Source: Escherichia phage JEP6. From it: 64,000 bases of DNA. Below are positions 23,220 through 58,384 of the stretch, one piece after another (within the stretch, counting starts at the first letter, position 1; each line of letters begins with the position of its first letter). The translations under genes and the position numbers were made by a program. The notes under the pieces are model-generated. The model had not been told where the DNA came from, did no database searches, and saw only the letters and a list, made by a program, of their open reading frames with translations. The DNA lies in the sequence record MT764206.1; one strand, written 5' to 3'.

Positions 23220-23774
23220 TCACTTTGAAATCATAGTTGGAATAACAGAATCAAGATAAGTCTTTAACGCAATAGCTTCGTCTTTGTTTAATGTAATGAT
23301 ATGTGATCGAAAATCGTCAATTTGACGAATAGATACTACATCTCCTTCTTCATAGCATTTTGATACATTTAAAACAGTTTCATCATTCTGATTGCAAGCG
23401 TTAGTAATAATAGCATTGCAATTTTTGAGCCATTTTAAACTATGTTTTCTTTCATTAGAATAATAAAAATATTTAATCTTAGCTATAAAACTATCCCAAT
23501 GGATAACTGATAAACACATTGACTCACTTTCAATGTTAAATCCTGGGCATGAAGAATAAAAATGAATTTTGTGCTCATCATTGATGCTTACTATTTTATC
23601 AGCATAAGGATATTCAATTTGGGTTAAATGAATAATTTCACTAGGTGTAAAATACAGCATATCGTCTTCTTGCGTCAAACGATACATGTTATTTACTTTT
23701 TCTATAGCCAATTCACCAAAAAGCGGACTAACTTCTAATACTAATCGTTTCATATTAATCCTTTTTATTGGCAC
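23220..23774 (-). CDS. hypothetical protein
   Basis: ORF track 184 aa. Confidence 0.5.
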   Translation of the reverse strand: MPIKRINMKRLVLEVSPLFGELAIEKVNNMYRLTQEDDMLYFTPSEIIHLTQIEYPYADKIVSINDEHKIHFYSSCPGFNIESESMCLSVIHWDSFIAKIKYFYYSNERKHSLKWLKNCNAIITNACNQNDETVLNVSKCYEEGDVVSIRQIDDFRSHIITLNKDEAIALKTYLDSVIPTMISK

Positions 23775-24033
23775 GAATTTGTTCTAAAATTTTAGAATAT
23801 TCCTTTGTATCAGATTTACGTACAATTGATACACTATAAGGCATACTATCGGTGTCTTTTATAAAGCGTTCCAAATGACACTCTAACAAAATTTCTGGAT
23901 TATAAATCGTGTACATCAAATTACCTGTTGCTCCACGATATTGGCAGATTTCTACTGATTGAACACCATTCCATAATTTTGTTAAAACTAAATCACCTAC
24001 TTCTAATTTAGGAAAGCCCATGTTATTCACCAA
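23755..24033 (-). CDS. hypothetical protein
   Basis: ORF track 92 aa. Confidence 0.45.
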   Translation of the reverse strand: MVNNMGFPKLEVGDLVLTKLWNGVQSVEICQYRGATGNLMYTIYNPEILLECHLERFIKDTDSMPYSVSIVRKSDTKEYSKILEQIRANKKD

Positions 24034-24208
24034 TTAAAGTTTCAATATAAGAATCAAGATTTACTTTAGCTTCTTCCATAAGAGTTTTGTATTTAATCTT
24101 GTTAGCATGTCCGGAGAAAGCTGATTCATCAATAATTGTTGATGTATGAACAGCTTTACTATACGTCTCAATTAATTCTCTTAATTTAAAAGCCTGCTCA
24201 CTTGTCAT
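24023..24208 (-). CDS. hypothetical small protein (member of small-protein family)
   Basis: 61 aa; MTSEQAFKLRELI N-terminal pattern. Confidence 0.45.
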   Translation of the reverse strand: MTSEQAFKLRELIETYSKAVHTSTIIDESAFSGHANKIKYKTLMEEAKVNLDSYIETLIGE

Positions 24209-24340
24209 TACATACTCCTTTGAATAATATCAATAATGTTGTTCACCAGATTATAAGTAAACATTGGGTAATTATATTGAATCATCACATACACAACAAA
24301 CAAAACTTTCATTCTCTTCTCCTTGGCAGTTGACAAGATT

Positions 24341-24370
24341 ACTATACCATAACCTTGCCAACTTGTAAAC
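24341..24370 (-). promoter_or_regulatory. T4-type early promoter (GTTTACA-N17-TATAGT)
   Basis: conserved element upstream of ORF 24023-24208. Confidence 0.55.
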
Positions 24371-24372
24371 CA

Positions 24373-24546
24373 TTAAATGACGTTTTCAATAAAATTCTGA
24401 AGCTTTGTGTGAGCATCAACCATGATTTTCATTTCTTCTTTGGCGAAAGCTGTACCTCTTTCCCGAGAAGAACATTCATAGTCAGAAACTGCATTAGCAT
24501 ATTCTTCAATTAGCTTCATTAAAAACATCTGCTTTTCAGTTTTCAT
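24373..24546 (-). CDS. hypothetical small protein (57 aa)
   Basis: below track cutoff; fills gap between ORFs; MKTEKQMFLMKLIEEY. Confidence 0.3.
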   Translation of the reverse strand: MKTEKQMFLMKLIEEYANAVSDYECSSRERGTAFAKEEMKIMVDAHTKLQNFIENVI

Positions 24547-24730
24547 TATTCCACCTAATCATTTCAAGATATTGGACTAACTTAGCTTTAGATTTATCCA
24601 AATCCTTTTTAGCTGCTTCTATACCGTCGTATGAATATCCTTCACAATGCTCAACTGCTAATTGATATGAATCTATTTCAATATCATGCGCTAATTTAAT
24701 GATTTTTTCAAACTGTTCGCGTGTTAGCAT
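24536..24730 (-). CDS. hypothetical small protein (small-protein family)
   Basis: 64 aa; MLTREQFEKIIKL. Confidence 0.45.
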   Translation of the reverse strand: MLTREQFEKIIKLAHDIEIDSYQLAVEHCEGYSYDGIEAAKKDLDKSKAKLVQYLEMIRWNNEN

Positions 24731-24732
24731 AC

Positions 24733-24915
24733 TTAAACTCTCGTATTATGATCGATAATTTCATCAAGAAACATATCTAACGCTTCTAAAGCATTATCAA
24801 CTTTAGCTTCAAATTCTTCAATACCTGATAAGGCAAAGTTAATGCGTTCCTCATCTGCTTTGCGAATTAAATCTACCAATTCTTTAATTTTATCCGCTTG
24901 TTCGATACTAATCAT
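24733..24915 (-). CDS. hypothetical small protein (small-protein family)
   Basis: 60 aa from ATG 24915 (GGTGG RBS, TAATG overlap with upstream stop); track start 24951 is an extension. Confidence 0.45.
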   Translation of the reverse strand: MISIEQADKIKELVDLIRKADEERINFALSGIEEFEAKVDNALEALDMFLDEIIDHNTRV

Positions 24916-25103
24916 TATTCCACCACATATGAAAGAGAGAATATTGCACACGCCATGTGAGTTGCAGCTTCATCACACATATCATAACGTTTCTTAAGAA
25001 GTTCTACAAGTTCTTCACTAGTGACTTCATCCATGTCGACGAAAAAATCACCATTAATGATGACGTAGATATTTCCTTCTTGATTAAGTGCTTCAATTTT
25101 CAT
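24915..25103 (-). CDS. hypothetical small protein
   Basis: 62 aa from ATG 25103 with GAGGAG RBS; track start 25148 (TTG) would overlap the promoter -10. Confidence 0.45.
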
Positions 25104-25131
25104 GATGTTCTCCTCTTTATCCGATGGTTGT

Positions 25132-25161
25132 ATAGTACCACGGCTCAAACGGAAAGTAAAC
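25132..25161 (-). promoter_or_regulatory. T4-type early promoter (GTTTAC-N18-TACTAT)
   Basis: conserved element between terminator and ATG 25103. Confidence 0.55.
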
Positions 25162-25177
25162 CGGTAAAATGAAAAAA

Positions 25178-25193
25178 GTCTCCCGAAGGAGAC
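25178..25193 (-). terminator. intrinsic terminator GTCTCC-CGAA-GGAGAC plus T-run
   Basis: hairpin just downstream of rI.-1-like ORF; A6 on plus strand (T6 on minus) follows. Confidence 0.65.
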
Positions 25194-25198
25194 TAATG

Positions 25199-25585
25199 TT
25201 ATTCGAGGGAAAGAAGATACTTACTCTGGTAAAACATTCCAGTAATATCATCTATCGTGCTTTGGATGGCTGGAGGCATTTCTTTATAAATGCTGTTAGA
25301 TTGGTCTAGTATGCGATCAATCATTTTAATTGTGTCGGTAGGAAGTTTACTAGCATCTGGAATTGAAGGTGTGTATTTTCTACCAGAATACCCCAAATAT
25401 TGCTCACCAAATTTATCAATCAAATCTGGCAACTCGGAGAAAATAAAATCGTATGCTTTGTGTCTAGCATAACTTTTAGTTTCAAAATGTGCAGAATGAA
25501 AATAAGCTTGTGCAGCCATTAATAAACCTAAGTATTCATCTGCCTTTGAAGGTTTTCCACTTTGTGAAAAGTCGCTGAATTTCAT
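25199..25585 (-). CDS. hypothetical protein (rI.-1 position)
   Basis: ORF track 128 aa; directly downstream of rI. Confidence 0.55.
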
Positions 25586-25875
25586 TCAGTCTCCAATTTA
25601 ATGTTCATAATTCTAGCGTATGATTGTGCCATCTCCGCGCCTCGTTCTATACATTCAAAATCAGAAGAGCACGGGTCATTTTTATAGGTCGTTCTCATAA
25701 AACTATAGAATTGTTCAGACGATTCTACGCTTTTATTTTCAAAAAGCATATAAACGTGCCTAATACCAGATTCCATAAATTTATCAAAATGAGGATCGAC
25801 ATTCGCTTCAATCGATGGAGATAAAACAAATGACAATCCTAGCATGGCAAATAGTGTCGTTGCTTTTAAGGCCAT
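25582..25875 (-). CDS. rI: lysis inhibition regulator (antiholin) RI
   Basis: 97 aa; N-terminal signal-anchor MALKATTLFAMLGLSFVLSPSIEA; sequence matches recalled T4 RI. Confidence 0.85.
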   Translation of the reverse strand: MALKATTLFAMLGLSFVLSPSIEANVDPHFDKFMESGIRHVYMLFENKSVESSEQFYSFMRTTYKNDPCSSDFECIERGAEMAQSYARIMNIKLETE

Positions 25876-25887
25876 AAAGGCCTCCTA

Positions 25888-26100
25888 TCATTTTTGCCCT
25901 GTATTTACTTTATGCCGATGCACGGCCTTAACTTTATCAAGGTATTTTTCAAAATTTCGCAATCTAGTATAGTCTGCCGGAGATTGGTTGAGTGATACTT
26001 CTCGACGCAAAGCTGAAATGATATTTCCAACTTCCCTACGAATTTCATCTAATTGAAGAACGGTAAGATTGCGAAGTTGCTTTTCAGTTAATTGTAGCAT
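25888..26100 (-). CDS. hypothetical protein (rI.1 position)
   Basis: ORF track 70 aa. Confidence 0.5.
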
Positions 26101-26125
26101 ATATACCCCTTTAGTTAGATAAACC

Positions 26126-26133
26126 TATTTATA
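26126..26133 (-). promoter_or_regulatory. possible late promoter (TATAAATA on minus strand)
   Basis: exact TATAAATA about 25 nt upstream of ORF start 26100; could be chance in AT-rich DNA. Confidence 0.3.
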
Positions 26134-26142
26134 ACTTTTGCA

Positions 26143-26724
26143 CTAACCGAGCTTTTTAGTTAATTCATTCCAATGTTTTCTACACAAAGAAACATAAATT
26201 TCATCACCAATACAGATTTGATTACCTTCTTTAACTGGTGTTCCATCTTCCATTAATCGAGCTGTCATAATAGCTTTTTTACCACAATGACAAACTGCCT
26301 TTAGTTCAATAAGTTTATCTGCAATCGCCAAAAGTTCTTTAGAACCTTCAAATAATTTTCCAGCGAAATCAGTCCTTAGCCCATAAGCCATAACAGGAAC
26401 ATTATATGTATCAACAATTCGACTTAATTGATGCACCTGTTCAGTTTTTAAAAACTGAGCTTCATCTACAAATACACAATGAATATCTTTTTGTGCTTCA
26501 GCCCATTTATAGAACTCAAAAATATCCATATCATCCGTAATAATATTCGCTTCCTGCTTAATTCCAATGCGAGAAACGACTTCACAGACAGAATCGCGAG
26601 TATCAATAGCAGGCTTAAGAACTAATACACCCATTCCGCGTTCTTTATAATTATGTGCAGCAGTCAAAAGAGAAGCAGATTTTCCAGCATTCATTGCTGC
26701 GTAAGTAAAAATTAAACTCGCCAT
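26143..26724 (-). CDS. tk: thymidine kinase
   Basis: 193 aa; P-loop AAMNAGKS; C-terminal zinc-binding CHCG...C...C typical of TK1-type kinases. Confidence 0.9.
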   Translation of the reverse strand: MASLIFTYAAMNAGKSASLLTAAHNYKERGMGVLVLKPAIDTRDSVCEVVSRIGIKQEANIITDDMDIFEFYKWAEAQKDIHCVFVDEAQFLKTEQVHQLSRIVDTYNVPVMAYGLRTDFAGKLFEGSKELLAIADKLIELKAVCHCGKKAIMTARLMEDGTPVKEGNQICIGDEIYVSLCRKHWNELTKKLG

Positions 26725-26725
26725 C

Positions 26726-26914
26726 TTAGTCCTTAGTTAAATTTTCTAAATATGTTTTTAAATCATTTTCAGCTTTATCGATAGATTTTACTAATTCGTA
26801 ATATGTTTCGGCATCTCCATATTCAGAAGATATTTCAAAAGACAAATCCTTTTCTAAACTAATAATTTCACCAACTAAAAATAATATTTCGTTCTTTTGT
26901 TCGCGAGTAATCAT
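26726..26914 (-). CDS. hypothetical small protein (small-protein family)
   Basis: 62 aa; MITREQKNEILFL. Confidence 0.45.
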   Translation of the reverse strand: MITREQKNEILFLVGEIISLEKDLSFEISSEYGDAETYYELVKSIDKAENDLKTYLENLTKD

Positions 26915-27096
26915 AAGGAATTTATATAATCAATAAGTTCTTGTTCTTTATTATCGAATTCTTTAGAAAGTTCTTCGTACTCGTTTGCACTAAAAGGACC
27001 GCATTCATTACAAACTTTTTCCAATTCACTATTTTTATCCATAACTTCGTGGATAAGAGAAAAGAGTTTGTCTTTTTGTTCTTTGCTTAGGCTCAT
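26911..27096 (-). CDS. hypothetical small protein (small-protein family)
   Basis: 61 aa; MSLSKEQKDKLFSL. Confidence 0.45.
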   Translation of the reverse strand: MSLSKEQKDKLFSLIHEVMDKNSELEKVCNECGPFSANEYEELSKEFDNKEQELIDYINSL

Positions 27097-27266
27097 ATAT
27101 TAATTTCCAGAAGTTTTAAAATAATTCGCTTTTGCTTAAATATTTCCATAGTTAAATGATCAGTATCTTTTTGGCCAATTCCAATGGCAAAACCTTTATT
27201 AGCAGCGAGTTCAATTAAATTATCAAGTTCACGTGACACTTCATATTGTAACTCAGAACTATTCAT
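27093..27266 (-). CDS. hypothetical small protein (57 aa)
   Basis: below track cutoff; ATGA overlaps at both ends with flanking ORFs. Confidence 0.35.
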   Translation of the reverse strand: MNSSELQYEVSRELDNLIELAANKGFAIGIGQKDTDHLTMEIFKQKRIILKLLEINI

Positions 27267-27475
27267 TTCGGTTTACCTTCTTTAACGAAATCTGGATAAG
27301 GATAAAATCCCGAATAAAATCCTTCACCTTTATGATTGATGCATCCTTTATTAGAACAATAGCACCAATAATCGAAATCACAAGCCATTTCATCGTTGCA
27401 TAAAGCAAAAACAACTGGCCATTTACACTTTTCACAATGGGCATTTTTAAGAATACTAGTTTGGCTCATAACCAT
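27263..27475 (-). CDS. hypothetical Cys-rich (probable zinc-binding) small protein
   Basis: 70 aa; CEKCKW...C...C...C...CYC...GC pattern. Confidence 0.45.
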   Translation of the reverse strand: MVMSQTSILKNAHCEKCKWPVVFALCNDEMACDFDYWCYCSNKGCINHKGEGFYSGFYPYPDFVKEGKPK

Positions 27476-27693
27476 GTAACCTTTAAGCAGTATTCTTCTA
27501 CATGCTGTTTACGACCTTTCTTATCAATAAAGGTATATTCAACGAATGTTCCAATGTAGTCTTTATCTACATCATGCGGACTATTAATTGGACATTTAGT
27601 ACGGCAAATGCGTTCCCATTGACGAATAATTACTGCCTTATTCTTTGGGTCATATGGATGTGGATAATGTATATTCATAATAATGGTTCCCAA
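27466..27693 (-). CDS. hypothetical protein
   Basis: ORF track 75 aa. Confidence 0.45.
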   Translation of the reverse strand: MGTIIMNIHYPHPYDPKNKAVIIRQWERICRTKCPINSPHDVDKDYIGTFVEYTFIDKKGRKQHVEEYCLKVTWL

Positions 27694-28142
27694 TCAACAA
27701 TCACAATTTCTAATTTAGAGGAATATGTATCTAAAATCCCCTCAATAATATCCCAGTTCCCTTTACCTATGCCTGCACCAATCCTAGGCATATAGATTGT
27801 AGGTTTAATCAGTTTATTTTCACCAAACTCATTTAATTCTAACATACAATTCATTAAAGCGAAATACTCAAAATTTGGCCCTGGTTGAAATTGAGTATAA
27901 AGATTAAAGCAGTAAGCTTTATGAGTCCTAAAGTATTTTTCATAGACTGAATAAGAACCAAGTTTAGTTACATCACCCCATTCAGTCTGTAGTTTATCAG
28001 CTTCCAGAATTTTAGGGAAAGCTTTGGTTAATTGACCTGCGACTCCAGCTTTCATCGTATGAAAACAATTGCATCCATGCGCAATATTTTTACCTTCAGC
28101 GAAAAGGGCGACAATATCGCCCTTGATATATTTTACAATCAT
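27675..28142 (-). CDS. macro-domain-like protein (possible ADP-ribose binding/hydrolase)
   Basis: 155 aa; GDIV...IAHGCNC...MKAGVAGQL resembles macro-domain core motifs (GDIT...NAAN...GGGV); assignment tentative. Confidence 0.45.
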   Translation of the reverse strand: MIVKYIKGDIVALFAEGKNIAHGCNCFHTMKAGVAGQLTKAFPKILEADKLQTEWGDVTKLGSYSVYEKYFRTHKAYCFNLYTQFQPGPNFEYFALMNCMLELNEFGENKLIKPTIYMPRIGAGIGKGNWDIIEGILDTYSSKLEIVIVDWEPLL

Positions 28143-28486
28143 TTAGTACTCAATCCTCGATTATAAGAATCTACCAAACGGTCAACCATTGAATGACAAG
28201 CGGCTTTATCTTTCTCCTCCGCAACTGAACATTCTAAGGTATTCCACTTTTTAGCATATCGTTTTAATAATGTATCGTTTTTGTATCTGCTTGATTTATC
28301 TCTTTCTCCATCTTTATATGCATATATTAATTTCTGCGCAAATTCAGCTTGGCACGCTTTATTTTTCCCACAATAATCTGCCGCAGTGCGGTTTACATAT
28401 TCTCTAATTTCAGTATATGATGTATCTGCTGACGCAGAAGCAGAAAATGAAATTAATCCTATACATAAAACCAAAATTTTAGTCAT
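28139..28486 (-). CDS. hypothetical secreted protein (signal peptide, 4 Cys)
   Basis: 115 aa; N-terminal signal peptide MTKILVLCIGLISFSASASA. Confidence 0.5.
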   Translation of the reverse strand: MTKILVLCIGLISFSASASADTSYTEIREYVNRTAADYCGKNKACQAEFAQKLIYAYKDGERDKSSRYKNDTLLKRYAKKWNTLECSVAEEKDKAACHSMVDRLVDSYNRGLSTK

Positions 28487-28652
28487 TTACTATTTCCAAA
28501 AGTTTATTATTTTTAAGGTAATTAGCCTTTTCTAGGACTTCAGAAGCATATTTAGAACCAGCTTTAACATTCCATCCTGAATTATAAGAGGATATTGCTT
28601 TTCTTATATCGCCCTTATGTATATTTAACCAATAAGAAAGTTCAATGTACGC

Positions 28653-29831: not shown

Positions 29832-30097
29832 TAGTATTTTTCCTCTGGTTGGAACACAGCACGGCAAGCCCACATACTGGCTTCTTTGAGTTTCGTTTTA
29901 GCAATAGTTAACTGATCGAGGCTTTCGGCGTAATTCTTCGCGAGTTCACAGTCTTCACAATTATCTAGTGCTTCCCAGAATTCATCGTATAAAGCATCAA
30001 AGATAAGTCCTAAACGAACTTCAGCGTCTTTGATAGCATTCACTTTACCGATTTTCTTTTCAGTATGCGGCTTATAACCCTTAATATCTTCAATCAT
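29831..30097 (-). CDS. hypothetical small protein (vs.4 position; Acb2 candidate by position only)
   Basis: 88 aa from ATG 30097 with GAGGAAG RBS; position relative to regB and the GrcA-like gene. Confidence 0.4.
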
Positions 30098-57725: not shown

Positions 57726-58384
57726 TGAGTTTACTTAATAATAAAGCGGGAGTTATTTCCCGCTTAGCAGATTTTCTTGGTTTTAGAACTAAGAAAAATG
57801 ATATTTCGGTTATGAATAATCAGCCAGTAGGTGCTGTAACAATTTCACAAATAGCAAAAGGTTTTTATGACTCAAATGTAGAATCTGCTATCAATGATGT
57901 TAGAAATATGGCAGAGCAACAGGTTGGAGCTGTATTAGTTAATATAAGCGGCGTATCTCCTACTGGCGTGCAACAAACAGACTATTGGTCATTTGAAGGA
58001 ACCGTTACTGATACTTCAGCCAAACCAGGTGATCCAGTTATTGTTAACATGTTTGGTATTCCAGTTAAAGCTACTAATGGAATGACTTCAATTGAATTTA
58101 CTAGTGCTGTTAGAACAGCTCTACAGGAAATGGTTGTAAAATTTATTGCAATTGATTCGTTTGAAGACCATCCTACTATAGGGAATAAAATACAAGTTAA
58201 GTATTTAGATAACCAAGAACATATCTTAGAGCAATACTCTGATAAAGGAATTACTTTCAAACAAGAAATAATTTCTCCTTCTAAACCCGGGTATGGAACT
58301 TGGCAATTATTAGGTGCGCAAACTGTTACGCTAGATAGTCACACACAACCTACAGTATTTTATTATTTTGAGAGAATAGCATGA
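57725..58384 (+). CDS. 11: baseplate protein gp11 (short tail fiber attachment)
   Basis: 219 aa from ATG 57725 ([20 protein letters not shown]); TAATG overlap with gp10 stop; track ORF starts 6 codons upstream. Confidence 0.85.

Follow-up and report, generated by a model that had tools for sequence, protein, structure and literature searches.

Six small open reading frames around rI and tk of Escherichia phage JEP6 as diverged paralogues of the phage family DUF7438

In the analyzed stretch of the Escherichia phage JEP6 genome (MT764206.1; 64,000 nucleotides (nt), hereafter the window), six small open reading frames (ORFs) located on the minus strand around the genes rI and tk belong, as diverged paralogues, to a single phage-specific family, Pfam DUF7438 (PF24219). 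An earlier reading of the sequence (the original prediction) had described at least five small ORFs between 24023 and 27266 that share an N-terminal amino acid pattern and a similar length. All five were found to be real minus-strand ORFs matching PF24219; a sixth copy, mobD.2a, had been missed, and the family ends at position 27096, not at 27266. The best overall explanation combines membership in the DUF7438 paralogue family with a proposed mechanism, in which the proteins would act as small binders of other proteins; its probability is estimated at about 0.5. The family itself is already known, as the curated Pfam entry DUF7438 and as PHROGs 653, 2758, and 4859, and the window ORFs are members that correspond to the named genes mobD.2a, mobD.3, mobD.4, tk.1, and tk.2 of phage T4 and to RB14ncORF101c. 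The region 23700-27500 shows 96-98% DNA identity with T6, RB14, wV7, and many other Tequatrovirus genomes, which marks the phage, by its sequence, as a T6/RB14-like Tequatrovirus of the T4 type. Gene names were transferred from the RB14 and T4 annotations. The six family members are as follows (lengths in amino acids, aa; pI, isoelectric point):

24023-24208, minus strand: member 1, RB14ncORF101c-type gene, 61 aa, pI 5.3, starts MTSEQAFKLRELI; PF24219 57.8 bits, E 1.4e-15
24373-24546, minus strand: member 2, mobD.2a, 57 aa, pI 5.3, MKTEKQMFLMKLI; PF24219 56.5 bits, E 3.7e-15
24536-24730, minus strand: member 3, mobD.3, 64 aa, pI 5.0, MLTREQFEKIIKL; PF24219 66.5 bits, E 2.7e-18; phrog_653
24733-24915, minus strand: member 4, mobD.4, 60 aa from the ATG at 24915, pI 4.3; PF24219 50.8 bits, E 2.1e-13; phrog_653
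26726-26914, minus strand: member 5, tk.1, 62 aa, pI 4.3, MITREQKNEILFL; PF24219 55.6 bits, E 7.1e-15; phrog_653
26911-27096, minus strand: member 6, tk.2, 61 aa, pI 4.4, MSLSKEQKDKLFSL; PF24219 68.6 bits, E 6.2e-19; phrog_653

All six ORFs matched PF24219 with 50.8-68.6 bits (E 2e-13 to 6e-19), the curated gathering threshold of this 57-position profile being 25 bits. The matches span profile positions 1-57 (1-56 for mobD.2a) and run from protein residues 1-3 through residues 53-61, so that a single domain covers essentially the whole protein of ~57-64 aa. An independent analysis was performed without the Pfam model. Hidden Markov models (HMMs) were trained on five copies and searched against the 672 ORFs of 35 codons or more that a six-frame translation of the window contains, and the held-out sixth copy was the best non-training ORF every time. 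The held-out copies had E values of 1.5e-5 to 1.7e-3 (1.9e-4 for member 1), and the next ORF had E >= 0.05. Pairwise identity between the copies is low (14-30%) and pairwise BLAST comparisons are mostly insignificant (most E > 0.001); the support therefore rests on profiles, and this is why the motif alone had been visible in the original prediction. The full-length Pfam matches and the leave-one-out HMMs together give statistical support to the N-terminal pattern, the point on which that prediction was open to refutation. In addition, a C-terminal motif, L-x-x-[YF]-[LIV]-[END]-x-[LI], is conserved as strongly as the N-terminal pattern.

In the PHROGs database, the family is distributed among three groups, whereas Pfam unites it as one. 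The products of mobD.3, mobD.4, tk.1, and tk.2 match phrog_653 (E 2e-16 to 5e-26), that of mobD.2a matches phrog_2758 (E 6e-36), and that of member 1, whose orthologue is annotated in RB14, matches phrog_4859 (E 5e-39). Weaker cross-matches connect PHROGs 653, 2758, and 4859.

The boundaries of the family in the window were assessed in the same way. ORF 27093-27266 (57 aa) has no Pfam DUF7438 match, and its comparison with the family profile in hhalign gave a probability of 1.1%. The rI.1 gene (25888-26100) likewise has no DUF7438 match in the Pfam scan and ~1% probability in hhalign, and no DUF7438 match was found for mobD.5 (24915-25103) in the Pfam scan. Family HMM searches of six-frame ORFs detected no seventh member elsewhere in the 64-kb window.

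According to AlphaFold2 modeling, the mobD.3 protein monomer is an antiparallel helical hairpin with helices at residues 4-29 and 34-63 (predicted local distance difference test score, pLDDT, 94.6; predicted template modeling score, pTM, 0.78). The model of mobD.2a contains helices at residues 3-29 and 32-56 (pLDDT 88.8). Both predicted models are antiparallel two-helix hairpins of ~60 residues, that is, of the Rop-like type, and they bear out the earlier description of a small helical protein. Each of the six proteins has an acidic pI (4.3-5.3), a net charge between -2 and -9, and a hydrophilic composition with a negative grand average of hydropathy (GRAVY); proteins of such composition would be cytoplasmic and not membrane-bound.

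Conservation among 36 family sequences peaks at residues 1-17 and 51-58, which together form the open end of the hairpin. The conserved N-terminal positions are M1, [IL]2, T3, E5, Q6, K9, [IL]10, L13, [IV]14, and [IL]17, and the conserved C-terminal positions are L51, [YF]54, [LIV]55, E56, and [LI]58. The loop-proximal half of the hairpin is variable in sequence and length and prone to insertions and deletions; for example, the RB14 orthologue of mobD.4 carries a 7-aa insertion in the loop. The hydrophobic positions 11, 14, and 55 exceed a minimal two-helix core and possibly form an oligomerization or docking surface.

The window paralogues group with their own orthologues in other genera, with 40-92% identity compared to 14-30% between paralogues, which indicates that the duplications are old and predate these genera. 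Each window copy has an orthologue that is 95-100% identical in T6, RB14, or T4. The pooled ratio of nonsynonymous to synonymous substitution rates (dN/dS) in orthologue comparisons was 0.15 (RB14), 0.16 (T4), and 0.19 (VR26), and the selection acting on each copy is purifying, not diversifying. Thus, the part of the original prediction that proposed repeated duplication stands as far as paralogy is concerned, but the ongoing diversification that its wording implies is not supported, in view of the old orthogroups and the dN/dS values of 0.15-0.19. The existing diversity arises from gene gain and loss, pseudogenization, and cassette-like allele replacement, and not from ongoing diversification of the copies.

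An example of pseudogenization is mobD.2a of T4. The annotated 38-aa product is a frameshifted remnant of a 57-aa gene (T4 57996-58177; L003 7996-8177), and the family HMM recognizes its N- and C-terminal halves in different frames, with E values of 9e-8 and 2e-5. The gene is intact in the window and in RB14. An example of allele replacement is the tk.2/tk.1 locus. A tk.2 protein at least 90% identical to the window copy was found in 133 of 741 records, and Tk at least 95% identical in ~500 records. In phage NBG2, the flanking proteins (vs, tk.4, tk.3, ORF110c, tk, and rI.1) are 95-100% identical to those of the window; tk.1 is absent, and the tk.2-type gene (L010 1501-1686) encodes a protein with 34/61 residues identical to window tk.2 and nearer to the allele of the Gaprivervirus VR26 (43/60). 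Judging from these sequences, the NBG2 locus is a cassette-like replacement relative to window positions 26726-27096.

A further observation on this locus concerns the metagenomic protein P0021 (50 aa), in which helix 1 of tk.2 (MSLSKEQKDRLFSLIHEVMDKN) is joined to helix 2 of tk.1 (AETYYELVKSIDKAENDLKTYLENLTKD). It is an apparent tk.2/tk.1 chimera of the kind expected from recombinational deletion between adjacent paralogues. No cultured phage record contains it as a contiguous sequence, so that it could have arisen as an artefact of assembly.

To the extent of the databases searched, DUF7438 is a narrow, phage-only family that has no informative domain fusions. When 1.84 billion cluster representatives were scanned in HMMER with a six-sequence profile, 32 proteins were detected at E <= 1e-3, each of them standing for a cluster at 50% identity. 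All are stand-alone proteins of 38-76 aa (nearly all of 50-76 aa), except for one 936-aa repeat protein. The latter, P0014, contains at least 15 tandem repeats of ~23 residues (TLSSEQRSTLTELLHTIESTSET) and matches the N-terminal helix motif only (E 2.4e-17, summed); the resemblance is probably convergence of an amphipathic repeat and not homology. A single-sequence homologue search with mobD.3 and a tblastn search found orthologues only. The metagenomic representatives P0036 and P0043 have no counterpart among cultured phages. The number of copies was determined with the family HMM on six-frame ORFs, in the whole genome for T4 and in the tk region only for other phages; for NBG2 it was taken from the annotation:

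This window, Tequatrovirus: 6 copies
RB14, Tequatrovirus: 6 copies
T4 (whole genome), Tequatrovirus: 4 intact copies and mobD.2a split over two frames
Merlin, Moonvirus: 2 copies and one sub-threshold
PhAPEC2, Mosigvirus: 2 copies
VR26, Gaprivervirus: 2 copies
Klebsiella phage Roth16: 1 copy
NBG2, Tequatrovirus: a single family gene upstream of tk

The sub-threshold ORF of Merlin (L006 10356-10517) scores 18.6 bits, which is under the PF24219 cut-off. In every phage counted, including T4, RB14, PhAPEC2, VR26, Roth16, and NBG2, one member is located directly upstream of tk. Compared to T4, with its four intact copies and frameshifted mobD.2a, the window has six intact copies. Member 1 is not present in T4 and was found in 192 phage records, versus 585-741 records for the other copies (585 for mobD.3).

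Outside the window, the T4 gene pseT.1 (134908-135135; L004 9911-10135) encodes a C-terminal helix, KASKDLHDYIQSLVEK, that resembles the C-terminal motif of the family. It was detected with the family HMM among T4 ORFs (E 1e-3) and in hhalign with 33% probability over 25 columns, and has no Pfam match. Either a very distant relationship or chance may account for the resemblance.

In the searches for a function, no matching chain was found in the PDB by sequence (best E 0.14), and no Foldseek match to the PDB was below E 0.4. Among the BFVD matches listed, only uncharacterized proteins of T4-like phages (Merlin, VR25, IME523, PM2, EcS1, and MX01) were present. The full-length small structural analogues, among the matches listed, were oligomerizing hairpins only, namely, Rop, CsoR, and designed homo-oligomers. 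No sequence relationship between DUF7438 and these hairpins was detected, and the fold that they have in common is generic. Neither the metal ligands of CsoR nor the RNA-binding face of Rop is evident in the conserved DUF7438 columns, although no dedicated look at them was made. Scans of the members against Pfam, NCBIfam, and PADLOC gave no match to a catalytic or defense-system domain.

The available data on T4 agree with the earlier suggestion that the family is accessory. In the CRISPRi-ART knock-down screen of T4, mobD.2a, mobD.3, mobD.4, tk.1, and tk.2 were all scored ‘Not Fit’; the same five genes are listed there as having unknown function, and mobD.3, mobD.4, tk.1, and tk.2 are assigned to phrog_653 (PMC11879866 supplement). 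A spontaneous nrdC.11-mobD.3 deletion was viable in genome-reduced T4 (PMC9825161). Taken singly, every tested copy can be dispensed with under laboratory conditions, although each is held under purifying selection. The variation in copy number, from 1 to 6 among T4-like genera, points in the same direction.

Taken by itself, the proposed mechanism is tentative and less likely than not. The DUF7438 proteins would be small stoichiometric binders that act early in infection on host proteins or, less likely, on phage proteins, with a role that would be neither that of an enzyme nor that of a virion part. The conserved open end, M-[IL]-T-x-E-Q-x-x-K-[IL]-x-x-L-[IV]-x-x-[IL] (residues 1-17) together with L-x-x-[YF]-[LIV]-E-x-[LI] (residues 51-58), would serve as a shared interface, through which the proteins either associate with one another as a four-helix bundle, in the manner of Rop-type hairpins, or dock on a common partner. 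Specificity would differ between the paralogues and reside in the loop half, which is variable in sequence and length. The proteins would modulate host proteins during host take-over or counter-defense. Their repertoire would have been tuned to the host by old tandem duplications, after which genes were lost and cassettes were exchanged among phages. A precedent for this mode of action is the T4 ORFan 55.2, which is described as an inhibitor of E. coli topoisomerase I (PMC4396842). Genes of the 55.2 type resemble DUF7438 genes in being small, non-essential, early, and located in hyperplastic regions, and are unrelated to them in sequence.

Several points weigh against the proposed mechanism. 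The T-x-E-Q sequence may just as well cap the N-terminus of a helix, and the hydrophobic heptads may be no more than hairpin core, in which case the conserved end would be structural and not an interface. Early expression is presumed from consensus promoter matches and gene position. Redundancy, or a non-essential role inside the phage, would explain equally well why no fitness effect was seen in a single laboratory host. No homology or experiment ties any member to a partner or a phenotype, and searches of full-text literature for DUF7438, mobD.x, tk.1, and tk.2 revealed no functional study, only screen tables. The genes are not mentioned in the HIDEN-SEQ preprint or in the main text of the CRISPRi-ART article, the supplement of which names them.

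A more far-reaching version of the binder mechanism is speculative and seems rather unlikely. In it, DUF7438 would be a modular ‘hairpin library’, in which the open end forms homo- or hetero-oligomers, the loop halves neutralize different host factors (for example, components of anti-phage defense systems), and cassette swapping at the tk.2/tk.1 and mobD loci adapts the repertoire. If true, this would define a new class of phage counter-defense or host take-over proteins.

Among the alternatives to host-directed binding, a role inside the phage program survives best, and is nevertheless unlikely. In this case, neighboring genes would encode the phage complexes in which the hairpins serve as small adaptors or assembly subunits, for instance the Tk-containing nucleotide-precursor complex or the lysis-inhibition proteins rI, rI.1, and rI.-1. 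The constant position of a member directly upstream of tk in T4, RB14, PhAPEC2, VR26, Roth16, and NBG2 is consistent with such a role, as is the location of further members just downstream of rI.-1; rI.-1 and rI.1 are reported as lysis-inhibition accessory genes (PMC2962797). However, the T4-type early region is a hyperplastic block of unrelated small genes (PMC4122927), and adjacency is therefore an unreliable guide to function. Besides, tk is non-essential, and NBG2 lacks tk.1 although its Tk is identical to that of the window at 190/193 positions.

Binding of nucleic acids is less probable still. The Rop protein is a homodimeric, RNA-binding four-helix bundle, and the DUF7438 hairpins, which agree with it in size and two-helix topology and are encoded among early regulators such as regB and vs, could similarly dimerize and bind RNA or DNA, modulating phage or host gene expression. 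Against this stand the net charge of -2 to -9 and the absence of a conserved basic patch, K9 being the only basic position that is moderately conserved. Neither Rop nor any other nucleic-acid-binding family was found in the Pfam, NCBIfam, and PDB sequence searches.

The suggestion that the hairpins are Acb2-like sponges for cyclic-oligonucleotide immune signals, directed against the cyclic-oligonucleotide-based antiphage signaling system (CBASS), is very improbable. It arises from a 55-aa gene of Roth16 (PQ657790; L009 4834-5001) located directly upstream of tk and annotated as ‘anti-CBASS protein acb2’, which matches DUF7438 (PF24219, 57.3 bits) and not PF24729; the label is rejected. The Acb2/Tad1 Pfam module is also named a hairpin domain, with a profile of 58 positions compared to 57 for DUF7438, and the T4 member of that family, Vs.4, belongs like DUF7438 to the small helical-hairpin early proteins of T4-type phages. 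Nevertheless, when a profile of 28 DUF7438 sequences was aligned in hhalign with one of 20 Vs.4/Acb2 sequences, the probability was 0.7% over 5 columns, and PF24729 had no match at E <= 1 in the six window members or in the Roth16 gene. Vs.4 is longer (88 aa), has additional conserved N- and C-terminal motifs, and exhibits no sequence or profile similarity to DUF7438; residues invariant in Vs.4, e.g., G-Y-K-P-H and S-M-W-A-C-R, have no DUF7438 counterpart. No Acb2 structure was found among the best 50-60 fold-search matches, and the window carries a separate Acb2 homologue, Vs.4, at 29834-30097 (69.7 bits).

The remaining two alternatives are, like the Acb2-like one, effectively excluded, and have next to no probability. 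Unrelated short amphipathic helical ORFs might look alike by chance or convergence, as the identities of 14-30%, the insignificant pairwise BLAST values, and the match of the unrelated P0014 to the N-helix motif might suggest, but this does not account for six full-length matches of 51-69 bits to a curated profile with a cut-off of 25, for the clear separation, in the leave-one-out searches, of every held-out copy from the best unrelated ORF among 672, for N- and C-terminal motifs in register across 36 sequences, or for the common length, predicted fold, and genomic neighborhood. Similarly, the description of phrog_4859 as ‘helicase loader’, copied into RefSeq/GenBank and applied to orthologues of member 1 in some phage records, finds no support in similarity to T4 gp59: member 1 (61 aa) and gp59 (217 aa) give a best BLASTP E of 0.9 over 8 residues, gp59 is encoded elsewhere in the T4 genome, and member 1 belongs to the DUF7438 hairpin family, so that the label looks like annotation transfer.

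One more database label is unsupported. T4 mobD.4 (NC_000866) and its relatives are annotated as ‘molybdopterin-guanine dinucleotide biosynthesis protein MobD’, apparently because the gene symbol mobD happens to coincide with that protein name.

Among the large lytic phages T4 has been studied best, and about half of its genes, including those considered here, have no known function. The present analysis unites six small ORFs, sets the boundaries and the fold of their family, and removes three misleading labels. It also indicates that the duplications are old, the copies constrained, and the loci hot spots of gene loss and allele exchange. No new kind of system is revealed. For screens that combine gene deletions or look for interactions, the genes are a rational choice of targets.

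In the plastic region between nrdC.11 and vs, the six copies are grouped in two compact strings made up of small accessory genes. On the minus strand, from high to low coordinates, the gene order is vs, tk.4, tk.3, two RB32-type small ORFs, tk.2, tk.1, tk, rI.1, rI, rI.-1, mobD.5, mobD.4, mobD.3, mobD.2a, mobD.2, the RB14ncORF101c-type gene, a Phage_tudor gene, mobD.1-like genes, and nrdC.11. The first string comprises mobD.5, mobD.4, mobD.3, and mobD.2a, with junctions of -1, +2, and -11 nt. The ORF list begins mobD.4 at a GTG (24951); the ATG at 24915 overlaps the mobD.5 stop codon by 1 nt. The gene mobD.2a overlaps the end of mobD.3 by 11 nt. A promoter-like site is followed by mobD.2, member 1, and the Tudor gene (junctions -1 and +1 nt). 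The second string contains two unrelated small ORFs, tk.2, tk.1, and tk (junctions -4, -4, -4, and +1 nt); here tk.2 overlaps each neighbor by 4 nt, and the stop codon of tk.1 is 1 nt ahead of the tk start codon. Adjacent genes in the strings thus share 1, 4, or 11 nt, or else gaps of 1-2 nt separate them. This tight packing agrees with the earlier description of translationally coupled strings and is as expected for translational coupling; the coupling itself is presumed from the gene arrangement.

The putative regulatory signals near the mobD genes are the following (bp, base pairs):

24341-24369, minus strand: sigma-70/T4-early-type promoter-like site, TTTACA-17-TATAGT with an upstream TG, 10/12 consensus matches
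25177-25194, minus strand: intrinsic-terminator-like hairpin, 7-bp stem followed by a T run, from a terminator scan; located after rI.-1
~25160-25132, minus strand: weaker promoter-like element, TTTACT-17-TACTAT, from reading of the sequence and below the scanner threshold

The site at 24341-24369 is the top-scoring promoter-like site within 23500-28500 and lies ahead of mobD.2 and member 1, for which it may be a promoter. The terminator-like hairpin at 25177-25194 forms the 5' boundary of the mobD.5-mobD.2a string, and the element at ~25160-25132 is a candidate promoter. Read on the minus strand, positions 25194-25132 contain the terminator-like hairpin and then the weak promoter-like element, an arrangement resembling promoter-stem-loop (PeSL) cassettes. 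Such cassettes are reported to drive modular shuffling in T4-like phages (PMC4122927, PMC2839356).

Three other genes of the neighborhood should be mentioned:

23755-24021, minus strand: Phage_tudor-domain protein, 88 aa, PF24144, E 2.7e-40; directly downstream of member 1
29834-30097, minus strand: Vs.4 homologue, Pfam Acb2_Tad1_hairpin PF24729, 69.7 bits
22229-22690, minus strand: 153-aa hydrophobic protein, occupying the place of the T4 mobD homing-endonuclease gene

The Phage_tudor gene and member 1 are both present in RB14 (ncORF100c and ncORF101c) and both absent from T4, and therefore appear to be gained or lost together. By its profile match, the Vs.4 gene is a genuine gene of the anti-CBASS sponge type, distinct from the DUF7438 copies. 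The T4 mobD homing-endonuclease gene is absent from the window, and the sequence of the 153-aa protein found in its place suggests a membrane protein; its RB14 counterpart, RB32ORF096c, is annotated as ‘replaces mobD’.

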